Positions 35,520-64,000 of a stretch of DNA of 64,000 nucleotides are shown here, in pieces. The notes beneath the pieces are model-generated. The model was given only the letters and a program-made list of their open reading frames with translations. It was not told the origin of the DNA and searched no databases. The first letter of the stretch is position 1; every line of letters starts with the position of its first letter. Position numbers and translations under genes: made by a program. Source of the stretch: a virus (taxonomy: Duplodnaviria > Heunggongvirae > Uroviricota > Caudoviricetes); IMG/VR virus record IMGVR_UViG_3300047392_000113, positions 55,152 through 119,151 of that record; one strand, given 5' to 3'.

Positions 35520-35889
35520 TTTCGTCAACGCCATTAACTTTAAAAAGAACATCTTAGCAGAAGACCCTCAAGCAGAAAAGGAGTACGATAAAGGTAAGTG
35601 GATCGTCAATAAAGCGTATAGTTATTTTCCAGATACGATTATGCCAGCCAATGCTATGAATGAGCATTGGTCTATTCCAGCTAAGTGGCAATTTCAGTTT
35701 TTCCTAAATACAATTACCAAAGGTAAGCGTAAGTCTGATTGGATCAAAAAAGAACCAACACCAGAGGCGCTCAAACTCGTAAAAGAATACTTTGGTTACT
35801 CAAGCGAAAAGGCAAAGGAAGCGTTAAGAATTCTCACAGCTGAAGACTTGAAAGTGATTGAAGAAAAATTATTTAAAGGTGGAAAATAA
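35506..35889 (+). CDS. gp62: Clamp loader small subunit gp62-like (by position between gp44 and regA).
   Basis: 127-aa ORF in the T4 gene-62 slot. Short gp62 orthologues exist in divergent T4-like phages. Direct similarity weak. Confidence 0.45.
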   Translation: MSPFDFVNAINFKKNILAEDPQAEKEYDKGKWIVNKAYSYFPDTIMPANAMNEHWSIPAKWQFQFFLNTITKGKRKSDWIKKEPTPEALKLVKEYFGYSSEKAKEALRILTAEDLKVIEEKLFKGGK

Positions 35890-36308
35890 TGTCTGTAGAG
35901 ATGATATACTACGACTGGACACCCGAGTCCATGCTTGAAGTGACACTGCCAGAACCCGACAACTTTTTGAAGGTTCGAGAGACTCTTACTCGCATCGGCA
36001 TCGCATCCAGAAAAGAAAACAAATTGTACCAATCCTGCCATATCTTACATAAGCAGGGTAGGTATTTCATCGTCCATTTCAAAGAACTCTTTGCATTGGA
36101 TGGTAAAGAATCGAATATCACTAGCGGTGATATCGAGAGACGAAACGCTATTGCTAGTCTGTTGGCTGATTGGGATCTATTAAAGATTCTAAATACTCAG
36201 CAGGCAGAACAAAAAGCGTCTCTGTCTCAAATTAAGGTGGTCTCTTATAAAGAGAAAGACCAATGGGAATTAGTGCCAAAATATAATATTGGGAAAAAAG
36301 CAAAATGA
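35889..36308 (+). CDS. regA: Translational repressor RegA.
   Basis: FLKVRETLTRIGIASRKENKLYQSCHILHKQGRYFIVHFKELF...WELVPKYNIG aligns closely with T4 RegA (FLKVKETLTRMGIANNKDKVLYQSCHILQKKGLYYIVHFKEML...WKLVPKYTIG). Confidence 0.9.
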   Translation: MSVEMIYYDWTPESMLEVTLPEPDNFLKVRETLTRIGIASRKENKLYQSCHILHKQGRYFIVHFKELFALDGKESNITSGDIERRNAIASLLADWDLLKILNTQQAEQKASLSQIKVVSYKEKDQWELVPKYNIGKKAK

Positions 36309-36481
36309 TTAAACTTGATTTGACAATTGAAGAAGTAAATACTATTCTACGCTCTTTGGGTAAGCACCCTTTTGACGAGATCGCAAACTTAATCGTTAAG
36401 ATTAAACAGCAAGGTGAACCACAGGTTGAAGAAATCGTTCGCCAAGCTGAAGCAGCAAAAGCTGAAGCACCAGCTGCATAA
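36305..36481 (+). CDS. Small hypothetical protein (58 aa).
   Basis: ATGA overlap with the regA stop. Ala/Glu-rich C-terminus. Below the track size cut-off. Confidence 0.3.
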   Translation: MIKLDLTIEEVNTILRSLGKHPFDEIANLIVKIKQQGEPQVEEIVRQAEAAKAEAPAA

Positions 36482-36482
36482 A

Positions 36483-36705
36483 TAAATTTGCATCCCTCGG
36501 GATGGGAACCAGCATACCTGCGAAGGCTGGATAAATGTCCACAGGTGCCGAATTTAAGAACCCACCTTAGGGCACGTTAGTCGTCACGGTAACAGGCGTC
36601 CGAGCAATTGCACTGACACTCGTAGTTGTCGCTGGATAAAGTAACCAGCATGTTATGCCTTCGGGGTAACTACAATTTAATTAACTCGCTTAATAGGAGA
36701 AAACT
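36483..36705 (+). ncRNA. Candidate structured non-coding RNA / leader upstream of hsp20. GC-rich island with multiple tetraloop hairpins.
   Basis: Largest non-coding gap in the window. ~50% GC vs ~38% genome. Hairpins CATCCC-tc-GGGATG, CCAG..CCT-GCGA-AGG..CTGG (GNRA loop), GTGCC...GGCAC, CC-TTCG-GG (UUCG loop). Repeated AACCAGCAT. Confidence 0.35.
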
Positions 36706-37215
36706 ATGATTACTAAATCATTCGTACCCGCATTCTTTTCACAAGATGCATTCAAAGACATCGATAAACTATTTCTAGGATTCGATGACCAATTCAAGCA
36801 AATGCAACAACTGCATGATGACTTGACAAAAAACATTCCAAACTATCCTCCATTTAATGTCCGTAAGAACGGTAACACTTACACAATCGAATTAGCTGTT
36901 GCTGGTTTCGCACAAAACGAAATCGACATCACTATCGATGGTGGTAAGCTAATCGTCAAGGGCAACTCTGAGTCTACTGAACCAGAGGATAACTTTGTAT
37001 TCAAAGGTATCGCTAACCGTGCATTCACTCGTGCATGGGCTATCGGCGATACTTATGAAGTCAAAGATGCTGAGTTGTTCAACGGTATCTTGAAAATTGC
37101 GCTTGATAAGCTAGTTCCAGAAGAACAAAAAGCTAAGAAAGTTCCAGTAAAAACTAAAGGAAGCAAGCAATTTTTACAGGAGGATGGTTATGACAAAGCT
37201 GCTGAAAGCCTGTAA
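36706..37215 (+). CDS. Small heat-shock protein (Hsp20/alpha-crystallin family).
   Basis: Alpha-crystallin domain features (PPFNVRKNGNTYTIELAVAGF...IDITIDGGKLIVKG...GILKIAL). 169 aa. Confidence 0.8.
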   Translation: MITKSFVPAFFSQDAFKDIDKLFLGFDDQFKQMQQLHDDLTKNIPNYPPFNVRKNGNTYTIELAVAGFAQNEIDITIDGGKLIVKGNSESTEPEDNFVFKGIANRAFTRAWAIGDTYEVKDAELFNGILKIALDKLVPEEQKAKKVPVKTKGSKQFLQEDGYDKAAESL

Positions 37216-37518
37216 AGAAATCGTACTTGGAATTGCTGATGGCATTAATCAGTTTAAAACTTACAAGCAAGGTAAAGTAAAATGATGAACTTGCTCAAAA
37301 GACTGTCCAAGTTATTTGAGCAAAAATCCCAACTTGAGTTGTATATACTTTCTAAGAATCCACAATCTGCCGCAGATGTAGAGCACTGGTCTAGAAATTA
37401 TTCTCAAAGAAGGGGTTATACATTATGAACAACTGGATTCCAATGACTGATGACGACTGGGATTGGGTGAACGGTAAAGTTCCACCAAACCCAAATGATA
37501 AAACAAAGTGAGGAAATC

Positions 37519-38096: not shown

Positions 38097-38140
38097 TCGT
38101 CATACAATTTTAGGGGTCTTAGGATCCCTAAATAATTTGT

Positions 38141-38344
38141 ATGATGAGAGCAAGACTATCCCCCAATCTAATTTCATTCGTCTTAGTGCGAAGAGGGGAA
38201 TGGCATCTCAAGGTATCTGTTTACAAAAACAAATACATAATGGTTGCAGCACATCACACGATAGACTTTGATAAGTTTATCATCAAGTTCTTTGAAGACC
38301 AAAATGTTGCTGCAGATTTTATCGAAAGATTAGTTGAGGAATAG
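38141..38344 (+). CDS. Hypothetical small protein.
   Basis: 67-aa ORF. No motif. Confidence 0.3.
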   Translation: MMRARLSPNLISFVLVRRGEWHLKVSVYKNKYIMVAAHHTIDFDKFIIKFFEDQNVAADFIERLVEE

Positions 38345-54873: not shown

Positions 54874-55596
54874 ATGAGTGCTGCTTCAGACAAATATGAA
54901 AAAGACGTTGCTGATAACGTCGATAAAATTCCAGGTGTTACTGCTATTCGTCCACCTGGAGACACAGCGTATGCTGATGTAAAAATCACTTACAAGAAAG
55001 TCACTTCTTGGATGGAAGTGAAGATGAATCACACTGACAATTTGTCTAACCCTCGTGTATACTATGAGAATGGTATGTGGAAGACTACCTATAAAACTCC
55101 ATCCGCTAAAGCTGCTGTTGATATCCTAAACAAAGACCCAAAGACTAAGAAGTTTCTTAAGGATATCGCTGAGTTCTCTGGCATCCCATTTAGATCTCTA
55201 AAGATTCCTACCACTAAAGGTGGTTTAAAGGAAGAGGGAGCAGTTCCACTTCACATCATGAAGAAGTTTTTCGATCAACCAAGCGTTAATCGTTATATCG
55301 CTAATAGTGAAAACGTAGACTTAGGTAAGGTAGTAACCGAACACTACACTAAAGGTAAGGCTGAGCCAGCATACTACATGCAAGCAGGTGATGACTTTTA
55401 TCGTATCTCAAATACAGACCCATTCAAATTAGGTGTAAGTATTCCACTATTGACTGGTCGTGGAGATTTCAAGGTTCGAGTTGCAACACGTTCTGAGTTC
55501 TATGAGGTACAAGCTGAGATCAAGATCGCTCATATGCCATCCAGCAGATACTCAGTGAAACCTGGAACCAACAAGACTAATCCGTTTTTAAAATAA
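54874..55596 (+). CDS. PD-(D/E)xK nuclease-like protein.
   Basis: PGDTAYADVKI ... WMEVKMN fits the PD...ExK pattern with ~20-aa spacing. 240 aa. Confidence 0.35.
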   Translation: MSAASDKYEKDVADNVDKIPGVTAIRPPGDTAYADVKITYKKVTSWMEVKMNHTDNLSNPRVYYENGMWKTTYKTPSAKAAVDILNKDPKTKKFLKDIAEFSGIPFRSLKIPTTKGGLKEEGAVPLHIMKKFFDQPSVNRYIANSENVDLGKVVTEHYTKGKAEPAYYMQAGDDFYRISNTDPFKLGVSIPLLTGRGDFKVRVATRSEFYEVQAEIKIAHMPSSRYSVKPGTNKTNPFLK

Positions 55597-63061: not shown

Positions 63062-63064
63062 ACT

Positions 63065-63093
63065 TTGCTTTGCAACCGTAGTTGGTGTATAAT
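63065..63093 (+). promoter_or_regulatory. Early promoter TTGCTT-17-TATAAT upstream of the primase gene.
   Basis: -10 TATAAT at 63088-93 preceded by TG (extended -10). Confidence 0.4.
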
Positions 63094-63119
63094 TACATCA
63101 TCTACGGAGATATTTTGGA

Positions 63120-64000
63120 ATGCTATACATTGATGTGAAGTTTGCGCAAATCTTAGGACCACGCCTAAGAAACTTCAAAAAGAAAAAAGATTACAACTGG
63201 AACTTCTCGTGTCCATTTTGTGGCGATAGTACAACCAACAAGCTAAAGGCACGTGGTTATCTCTATCGTGCAAAGGCAGATCTTTTTTACAAATGTCACA
63301 ACTGCGGTAAGGGTACTAACCTAGGAAACCTTATCAAGTGTGTAGACCACAAACTATATGATGAGTATGTTCTTGAACGCTACAAAGCTGGCGCATCAAA
63401 ACATAATGATCACAAAGACATTAGTGACACTAGTGTTATCTTAGAATCACCCAAAGAAGACTTACTTGAGGATGACATCCTTGAGTCGTTGACACGCATG
63501 GATAAATTACCCAGTAATCATCCAGCGTTGCAGGTTCTGCTTGATAGAAAGATCCCACGTGACAAGTGGAATCTGCTATATTTTGCTCCGAAATTTAAAG
63601 CATTCACCAATTCGGTGACGCCAAAATTTCAAGAACCAATCGAGGGTGAACATCCTCGACTAATTATTCCATTCTTCACCAATGCTGGAAAGTGTTTCGC
63701 TTTCCAAGGTAGAGCATTTGGAGATGAACAGCCTAAGTATTATACCATTAAAGTCGATGAGACTGAGGAGAAAATTTATGGACTCGACAGAATTGATTTC
63801 AGCAAACGAATTTATGTGGTTGAGGGTCCAATCGATTCTCTATTCATCCCGAACTGCGTGGCTGTTTCAGGAAGCAGTTTTGACACCCCTACTGTTCGTC
63901 GCATCCTTGCCAACGCTACGTTGGTAATGGATAATGAACCGAGATCTAAAGAAATTACCAAACTTTTAGAGAAGAATATCGACGCTGGTTATTCAGTTTG
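63120..64000 (+). CDS. gp61: DNA primase gp61, 3' partial (open to the window end). Missed by the ORF track because it has no stop inside the window.
   Basis: N-terminal zinc ribbon NFSCPFCGDSTTNKLKARGYLY...YKCHNCGKG (T4 FRCPVCGDSKTDQNKARGWYY...IHCYNCNYH). Later YVVEGPIDSLFIPNCVAVSGS and VMDNEPRSKEITKLLEKNIDAG match T4 gp61 (YVLEGPIDSLFIENGIAITGG; VLDNEPRHPDTIKRMTKLVDAG). Confidence 0.85.
   Translation, partial: MLYIDVKFAQILGPRLRNFKKKKDYNWNFSCPFCGDSTTNKLKARGYLYRAKADLFYKCHNCGKGTNLGNLIKCVDHKLYDEYVLERYKAGASKHNDHKDISDTSVILESPKEDLLEDDILESLTRMDKLPSNHPALQVLLDRKIPRDKWNLLYFAPKFKAFTNSVTPKFQEPIEGEHPRLIIPFFTNAGKCFAFQGRAFGDEQPKYYTIKVDETEEKIYGLDRIDFSKRIYVVEGPIDSLFIPNCVAVSGSSFDTPTVRRILANATLVMDNEPRSKEITKLLEKNIDAGYSV

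Follow-up and report, generated by a model that had tools for sequence, protein, structure and literature searches.

The 64,000-nucleotide (nt) stretch of DNA analysed here (IMG/VR record IMGVR_UViG_3300047392_000113, positions 55,152 to 119,151; hereafter the window) originates from an uncultured T4-like myovirus and raises the question of what is specified by a 223-nt gap directly upstream of hsp20, a gene for a small heat-shock protein (sHSP). Judged from the sequences of relatives, the gap is the 5′ leader of hsp20 and is both conserved and covarying; its last ca. 60 nt (36649-36711) are probably a two-hairpin ROSE-like RNA thermometer, in which occlusion of the ribosome-binding site would be heat-sensitive. 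A structured 5′ leader or thermosensor of hsp20 had been among the roles proposed in the preliminary description of the region, and this role is supported by a ROSE signature in the 3′ 60 nt, by covariation and by sub-threshold matches to the Rfam family ROSE_3. ROSE-like thermometers before sHSP genes are textbook knowledge in alpha- and gammaproteobacteria.

For comparison, 149 IMG/VR loci were retrieved with the two flanking proteins, and the sequence upstream of hsp20 was read in about 85 distinct loci, with Hsp20 identities from 34% to 100%. The gap proved to be modular in blastn: bases 1-27, which hold a 5′ hairpin, were found in a subset of loci, bases 28-73 in two near-identical contigs only, bases 74-220 with 72-92% identity in about 30 loci, and bases 142-220 in most loci. 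The unit common to the sequences upstream of hsp20 starts with a variable stem, G-CC-(tetraloop, mostly UUCG)-GG and the complementary stem, followed by 5-15 A/U-rich bases, and continues with (A/U)CU(C/U)GCU, a loop of 4-9 nt, AGGAG, another 4-9 nt and AUG. A covariance model built here (R1; 61 positions, 13 pairs) returned a single hit of 74.6 bits in the window, the next best scoring 16.6, and exactly one hit in each of 90 related loci. All of these hits lay on the same strand as hsp20, and their end coincided with the AUG of hsp20 or of an open reading frame (ORF) inserted before hsp20. In about 100 loci the element was invariably located at the start codon of hsp20.

The first hairpin of the element, Hp1, corresponds to hairpin I of ROSE-like leaders and is defined by covariation. 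In a MAFFT alignment of 45 sequences 94% of the cells were paired, with double-sided changes in six of the eight pairs; in the model-based alignment of the 90 hits (78 distinct sequences) the pairing was 95%, with double-sided changes in seven of eight. No measure was matched by any of 500 shuffles, and the signal collapsed when the partner was slid by 1-3 columns. The bulged G36657 was invariant (78/78 distinct sequences), and the hairpin had a free energy of -6.3 kcal/mol at 37 °C. Its bulge sits as does the unpaired G in hairpin I of the Rfam ROSE_3 consensus (GAUGCC...GGGUC), which has the same core.

After the A/U-rich linker, the ROSE motif UCGCU (36686-36690) stands opposite the Shine-Dalgarno (SD) sequence AGGAG (36695-36699; spaced 6 nt from the AUG at 36706), with which it is predicted to pair in a second hairpin, Hp2, the putative sensor. 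Over the 78 distinct sequences the motif read U in 78, C or U in 73 and 5, G in 78, C in 78 and U in 77, unlike the flanking linker, which varied freely. The second bulged residue, G36688, was thus invariant (78/78), and it was unpaired in every predicted fold. Stem variation in Hp2 was limited to C-G to U-G, which is exactly the alternation in U(U/C)GCU by which ROSE elements are defined. The minimum-free-energy (MFE) and centroid folds of the window element both consisted of exactly Hp1 and Hp2 with both bulges, and the consensus fold was in accord with the MFE fold. According to the energy models, the free energy of Hp2 was -6.1, -3.8 and -2.5 kcal/mol at 5, 25 and 37 °C, respectively, and the probability of an unpaired SD was 0.05 at 5 °C, 0.07 at 25 °C, 0.14 at 45 °C and 0.26 at 50 °C. 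With regard to SD occlusion, hsp20 ranked fourth among the 41 window genes with a recognisable SD. A fourU arrangement was not found, the anti-SD being CUCGCU with no UUUU opposite AGGAG. In the window the hsp20 AUG can also pair with codons 4-6 (AUGAUU/AAUCAU), a pairing not conserved in relatives; the median probability of an unpaired AUG in 77 relatives was 0.35 at 25 °C.

Proven thermometers precede ibpA in Pseudomonas: these ROSE-like leaders are 61-62 nt long and form two hairpins, the second of which contains the SD paired to U(U/C)GCU. Hairpin II alone suffices for thermoregulation, and the G-C rich hairpin I is still closed at 42 °C (Krajewski et al. 2013, PMC3669281). The phage element resembles these leaders in several respects. 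Two hairpins are accommodated in about 60 nt; hairpin I is stable, has an AU-G(bulge)-CC...GG-GU core and is separated by a single-stranded A/U-rich linker from hairpin II, where U(U/C)GCU is imperfectly paired with the SD; and the AUG lies outside hairpin II, directly at an IbpA-type sHSP gene. The phage element differs in its shorter hairpin II (five pairs plus bulge, in comparison to about 8-9 pairs in the ROSE_3 consensus), in its carrier, a lytic T4-like phage, in an apparent phage late promoter instead of a sigma-32 promoter, and, in the window, in about 160 nt of extra conserved leader upstream. Under permissive settings the Rfam model ROSE_3 (RF02523) aligned in full length (1-69) exactly at the hsp20 start, with 15.1 bits in the window, 20.0 in S-CAM9, 34.1 (E 0.0014) in Melnitz and 36.8 (E 0.0004) in a Bordetella-like metagenome-assembled genome (MAG); the phage leaders, at 15-34 bits, differ from ROSE_3 members in lying under its threshold of 43. 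In 36300-36900 neither ROSE (RF00435) nor ROSE_2 (RF01832) was matched, with E values up to 10 admitted. At gathering thresholds no curated RNA family matched anywhere in the window, and apart from ROSE_3 only chance-level matches (E above 1) were obtained. A match to the Rfam family freshwater-2 (17.1 bits vs 49.9), for which no literature was found, was set aside as being carried by the SD/AUG end alone.

With the classical ROSE elements (Bradyrhizobium, Rhizobium, Agrobacterium and E. coli ibpA; RF00435, RF01832) the window leader shares the layout of an sHSP leader with 3-4 hairpins, represented by the series HpA-HpB-Hp1-Hp2, in which the 3′ hairpin sets the SD against U(U/C)GCU with a bulged G and the 5′ hairpins aid folding. 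Its 5′ hairpins are unrelated to the classical ones in sequence, the sensor hairpin is much shorter, and the corresponding Rfam models do not match. A 2024 survey counted three phage RNA thermometers only, none of them ROSE-like (PMC11182007). These three (lambda cIII, the SPbeta blyA fourU and a gut phage sigma-70 fourU) are likewise temperature-sensitive structures of phage mRNA that control translation initiation, but they belong to other structural classes (alternative structures, fourU) and other genes, are from temperate or gut phages, and none precedes an sHSP gene.

Following these parallels, the hsp20 leader would be transcribed from a late-type promoter CATAAATA and would open with the conserved 5′ hairpin, while the stable Hp1 would nucleate folding. 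At low temperature the marginally stable Hp2 would hide AGGAG and little Hsp20 would be made; upon warming, the bulge-weakened stem of 5 bp would melt, 30S subunits would bind and Hsp20 would be translated, as in a zipper-type thermometer. Such a switch should work in any host, because neither protein nor ligand is needed. HpA, HpB and a hairpin presenting a ACCUUAGG box would most likely serve as scaffolds for folding or stability, comparable to hairpins I-III in the classical ROSE elements; together with Hp1, the upstream hairpins may prevent misfolding of the leader and protect the mRNA. They would be dispensable, because many relatives put the late promoter directly before Hp1.

Several points weigh against a thermometer of this kind. 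Compensatory changes are absent from Hp2, where covariation is not possible because the SD is fixed, and the pairing rests on motif conservation and energy models. Nearest-neighbour models hold the SD mostly paired up to 45-50 °C, and the folding energy of the element is no better than that of dinucleotide shuffles (z -0.7 to -1.0). In 24 of 77 relatives the MFE fold at 25 °C lacks pairing between the SD and the upstream anti-SD; in examples among these 24, the SD pairs with coding sequence (UUCCU). Every ROSE_3 score remained under the curated gathering threshold of 43 bits. As for the promoter, the window is without the canonical TATAAATA, and NATAAATA occurs 10 times in 64 kb, which is about chance. 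The temperature response of the leader is deduced by analogy.

Part of this evidence would also fit a leader whose task is to keep translation constantly low and/or to make the mRNA more stable, with real SD occlusion and no temperature sensing in phage life: the predicted SD accessibility shifts only slowly with temperature, aquatic phages meet a narrow temperature range, and the 5′ hairpin and the stable Hp1 resemble stabilisers. A plain occluding stem, however, needs no bulge, and the ROSE motif, including the bulged G by which it is destabilised, does not vary in any of the 78 sequences. Moreover, Pseudomonas has a proven thermometer of this architecture (PMC3669281), and the gene regulated by the phage leader is a heat-shock chaperone. 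A constant-rate leader is regarded as unlikely.

Upstream of the thermometer-like core the leader contains further conserved structure. For HpB, 100% of the cells were paired in 35 sequences, with changes on both sides in four of five pairs and a covariation score of 0.418 vs 0.095 in shuffles (0/500); slid controls were near zero. HpA was judged within leader classes, the MAFFT alignment across classes having misaligned it, and showed double-sided changes in three of four pairs in class I and in four of five in class II, the latter with 97.6% of cells paired. The arm pairs of HpA included GAUGU/ACAUC, GACAG/CUGUC and GCCAC/UUGGC. The ACCUUAGG box, presented by the hairpin at 36561-36572, was conserved in all three leader classes. 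By class, the closing stem of this hairpin was CCC/GGG, UCC/GGA, UCCC/GGGA or CUCU/GGAG, and in class II the box lay within a longer hairpin, AUUC..CUUAG-GACCR-CUAAG..GAAU. Because the three classes fold differently, a consensus fold common to them was rejected for the 5′ half of the long leader. The palindrome at 36604-36611 may be a dimerisation or protein-binding site, because a hairpin alone is impossible; in two relatives (L008, L073) it is replaced by GAAATTTC, a double change that keeps the palindrome.

The clade-specific insert (query positions 28-73) returned blastn matches only in L001, L002, L081 and L146, representing two contigs about 94% identical to the window. Both HpB arms are found in it in swapped order (AACCAGCAU ... 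GCUGGAUAAA), and the insert is therefore probably a partial duplication. The hairpins listed in the preliminary description were all present in the sequence, but their fates differed. CATCCC/GGGATG (36491-36504) and CC-UUCG-GG (36658-36665, the apex of Hp1) were conserved, whereas the GNRA-loop hairpin (36509-36530) and the 5′ arm of GTGCC...GGCAC were without comparative support, because the insert is known only from the two near-identical contigs. These two hairpins, being in the insert at 36510-36555 or dependent on it, were rejected as conserved structures.

The conserved upstream part invites the explanation that the domain at 36553-36648 (the ACCUUAGG hairpin, HpA and HpB) is a separate regulatory RNA, which might bind a ligand or a protein or act as an anti-anti-SD switch. 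The domain is conserved and covarying, its loops ACCUUAGG and GUAA are conserved in sequence, and it is present even in the distant phages L050 and L064 with 35% identical Hsp20. Furthermore, RNAalifold pairs AGGCG (36594-36598) with CGCUU of the anti-SD (36687-36691). All five of these pairs are invariant, however, and show no covariation, and the pairing is missing from most class II leaders. Many phages lack the domain altogether, their transcript starting at Hp1, the 5′ half folds differently in the three classes, and no Rfam match was obtained; classical ROSE also has 1-2 extra 5′ hairpins with no separate function. A separate regulatory RNA is accordingly given a low probability. Equally doubtful is the related idea that the long-leader domain 36491-36649 (5′ hairpin with GGGAAC, ACCUUAGG-presenting hairpin, HpA and HpB) is a second, independent sensor or switch gating the ROSE hairpin, by SD-mimic/anti-anti-SD pairing or as a protein- or ligand-binding module; if true, this would be a two-input RNA control of phage hsp20, which is known for no ROSE element.

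The conserved box has counterparts elsewhere in the window. CTTAGG as such was rejected as a repeated phage signal, with 20 occurrences found and 20 expected. At 38097-38140 a hairpin UUAGGG-GUCUUAGGAU-CCCUAA, with CUUAGGA, the box conserved in the hsp20 long leader, in its loop, is directly followed by a late-promoter-like CTAAATA just before the ORF at 38141. At 63152-63169 the sequence CUUAGGACCACGCCUAAG, a 6-bp hairpin, falls within the opening codons of a primase-like ORF that starts at 63121, and shares the 11-mer CUUAGGACCAC with class II hsp20 leaders of relatives. The degenerate CTTAGGRNCNC gave two matches vs 0.33 expected.

At its upstream edge the gap had been described as free of late promoter-like motifs, which was contradicted by CATAAATA spanning the stop of the upstream ORF, and by relatives carrying TATAAATA or CTAAATA equally spaced from the conserved hairpin. 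In 18 of the 20 distinct relatives with the 5′ hairpin, TAAATA ends 9-15 nt before GGGATGG, and four of them have the canonical TATAAATA. In 16 distinct short-leader sequences, from 13 IMG/VR loci and the isolates ACG-2014f, S-CRM01 and Melnitz, there is a (T/C)ATAAATA whose end lies 1-5 nt upstream of Hp1, and the resulting leader has a length like that in Pseudomonas. Because the frequency of the box equals chance, we infer promoter use from the conserved position of the motif; the late hsp20 transcript would start at about 36489-36491. The 5′ hairpin is unique in the window; its GGGATGGGAAC was conserved in 20 distinct loci, with a varying 5′ arm (AUCCC, GUCCC, CCCC...), and it is not followed by a T-run on the plus strand. 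It is read as the 5′ end of the late transcript because the TAAATA spacing is conserved in relatives, and is probably a stabilising stem-loop of the late mRNA, not a terminator.

The preliminary description was right in noting the lack of an intrinsic terminator on the plus strand: the scan of 35800-37400 yielded a single call, on the minus strand at the 5′ hairpin. Hp1 with its U-rich linker might nevertheless act as an intrinsic terminator or attenuator ending transcripts from regA and the small ORF, being a GC-clamped UUCG hairpin followed by an A/U-rich tract, with UUUUUU right after the stem in some relatives (e.g. L038). This is very improbable. The window tract UACAAUUUAAUU has scattered Us only and no terminator was called there, the same hairpin I is not a terminator in Pseudomonas (PMC3669281), and Hp1 cannot terminate upstream transcripts in short-leader phages because these have the promoter between the upstream gene and Hp1.

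Least credible of all are the other roles first suggested, namely a translational operator of RegA, an independent small RNA or a mobile-intron remnant: regA does lie two genes upstream of hsp20, in a widespread synteny regA-(ORF)-hsp20, and the promoter-like motif with the 5′ hairpin could begin a small RNA, but no AU-rich sequence is conserved around the AUG and the codons after it differ among relatives, no terminator separates the region from hsp20, neither an intron nor another Rfam match nor an endonuclease ORF was detected, and in P-SSM2, P-SSM4 and the S-RIM phages the element follows genes other than regA. No tRNA or tmRNA was found.

In its general features the gap was partly as first described. 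No plus-strand ORF of ≥40 amino acids (aa) was found in 36482-36705 (223 nt), and this is the largest non-coding stretch of the window, the next gaps being 148 and 145 nt. An ORF-free stretch of 620 nt (63062-63681) was dismissed as a bigger gap; it is an artefact of the ORF lists, which omit ORFs that run past the window end, as does the primase-like ORF starting there at 63121. The GC content was 46.4% vs 40.1% in the window, with only 4% of 223-nt windows equally GC-rich; the excess is confined to 36482-36648 (50%), and the last 57 nt have 35%. The reported direct repeat AACCAGCAT is present at 36507-36515 and 36643-36651, and a second one, CTGGATAAA, at 36527-36535 and 36632-36640. The region was also called highly structured, which did not hold: the gap folds with -61 kcal/mol vs -56.3 ± 4.5 in dinucleotide shuffles (z -1.04 on the plus and -0.79 on the minus strand), and its sub-segments had z values from -1.0 to +0.8. 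Stability is not the signal of this gap. Two checks proposed at the outset gave opposite answers, as the shuffled control folds equally well, whereas conservation and covariation in relatives are strong.

The coordinates of the leader features and of the surrounding genes are collected in Table 1. The gp44 clamp loader of the window is ≤60% identical to that of any isolate, with the closest matches in marine single-cell viruses and in the cyanophages S-SM2, Bellamy and P-SSM2. A nucleotide search of the region among isolated phages returned no close cultured relative, only short regA matches in five records. The PDB relatives of the window Hsp20 include AgsA.

Table 1. Genes and leader features around the hsp20 start in the window.
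Feature	Position	Strand	Description
gp44	33997-34998		Gene order upstream of gap
gp62-like	35506-35889		Gene order upstream of gap
regA	35889-36308		PF01818
58-aa ORF	36305-36481		No family; TAA stop at 36479-36481
Late-promoter-like motif	36477-36484	+	CATAAATA; overlaps TAA stop of 58-aa ORF
Gap (hsp20 leader)	36482-36705		Between 58-aa ORF and hsp20
5′-terminal hairpin	36491-36504	+	CAUCC-CUCG-GGAUG; conserved GGAAC to 36509; six bases after CATAAATA
Clade-specific insert	36510-36555	+	GNRA hairpin, CCAG 36509-36512 / CUGG 36527-30
Start of conserved long-leader domain	36556-36588	+	AAGAA; hairpin CCC-ACCUUA-GGG (36561-36572); small hairpin CGU...ACG (36575-36577 / 36586-36588)
Box and palindrome	36594-36611	+	AGGCGUCC box 36594-36601; 8-bp palindrome GCAATTGC 36604-36611
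HpA	36615-36630	+	GACA (36615-36618) / UGUC (36627-36630); loop CUCGUAGU
HpB	36631-36649	+	GCUGG (36631-36635) / CCAGC (36645-36649); loop AUAAAGUAA ending in conserved GUAA
Hp1 (ROSE-like hairpin I)	36652-36670	+	GUUAU - bulged G36657 - CC - UUCG - GG - GUAAC
AU/U-rich single-stranded linker	36671-36684	+	UACAAUUUAAUUAA; 5-15 nt and always A/U-rich in relatives
Hp2 (ROSE-like hairpin II, putative sensor)	36685-36699	+	CUC - bulged G36688 - CU / loop UAAU / AGGAG
Predicted start-codon hairpin	36706-36721	+	AUGAUU-ACUA-AAUCAU; in MFE folds; window-specific, weakly supported
hsp20	36706-37215	+	IbpA/AgsA-type small heat-shock protein, 169 aa; PF00011 (Pfam), E 2e-16; PHROG 432

Among isolated phages with hsp20, the element was present in 15 of the 16 tested, ending at the hsp20 AUG. 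These include all 13 T4-like cyanophages tested (S-PM2, S-RSM4, P-SSM2, P-SSM4, P-HM1, S-RIM2, S-RIM8, S-RIM12, S-T4, Bellamy, ACG-2014f, S-CRM01 and S-CAM9), the Methylophilales phage Melnitz and the Sinorhizobium phage Phosso; Vibrio phage PWH3a-P1 was the only one without it. As the element marks the true start codon of hsp20, it can serve as an annotation aid. In P-HM1 (L280; element 405-464) and S-T4 (L276; 377-437) the implied hsp20 starts are 459 and 432, respectively, and the GenBank starts of 408 and 507 are probably wrong. A weak second R1 hit (22.8 bits) in S-CAM9 (L155, 1906-1958), just downstream of hsp20 and before the next gene, may be a terminator hairpin plus SD. In L010 (688-912), as well as in L005, L011-L016, L059, L074/75 and L141-L145, an ORF of 74 aa, for which neither Pfam nor PHROG gave a match, separates the element from hsp20, and the element would therefore head a two-gene unit.

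The mechanism proposed is ordinary; noteworthy are its breadth in cyanophages, the phage late-promoter context and the extra conserved leader domain. No literature linking ROSE-like thermometers to phage or cyanophage hsp20 was found in a search outside of which most subscription journals lay. Among the ‘host-like’ genes of T4-like cyanophages, hsp20 ranks with the most conserved; if the leader is a thermometer, synthesis of phage Hsp20 would be tied to temperature by a host-independent RNA device. It may be hypothesised that Hsp20 would then matter for the integrity of the virion or the host proteome in warm or stress episodes. Cultured carriers of the element are available in S-PM2, P-SSM2/4, P-HM1 and S-CRM01.

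Bacterial genomes were covered by a loose pattern scan, which gave mostly chance matches and was then screened with R1. At least six betaproteobacterial genomes (L187, L184, L201, L209, L171 and L222) have the same leader before IbpA-type sHSP genes, and one of the IbpA-like proteins encoded there shares 38% identity with the phage Hsp20. The bacterial leaders share Hp1 (stem-G-CC-UUCG-GG-stem), the linker and the ACU(U/C)GCU...AGGAG hairpin with those of the phages; they differ in being cellular and more GC-rich, in having mostly UUGCU instead of UCGCU, and in scoring 27-43 bits with the phage model. The ROSE_3 threshold also misses these leaders, with 36.8 vs 43 bits in L222 (Bordetella-like) and no match at E up to 0.1 in the other five. 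ROSE-like elements are thus broader than the databases show, because the Rfam ROSE_3 model misses the phage and betaproteobacterial members. The simplest explanation of the shared sequences would be that the hsp20 gene and its leader have common ancestry with proteobacterial ibpA and travelled together. One further carrier, a ‘Thermoplasmata archaeon’ MAG (L232 1444-1505; CP070751.1), has a cyanophage-type hsp20 with a leader matching S-CAM9 in Hp1 and the following spacer, and probably represents phage DNA that was wrongly binned with an archaeal genome.

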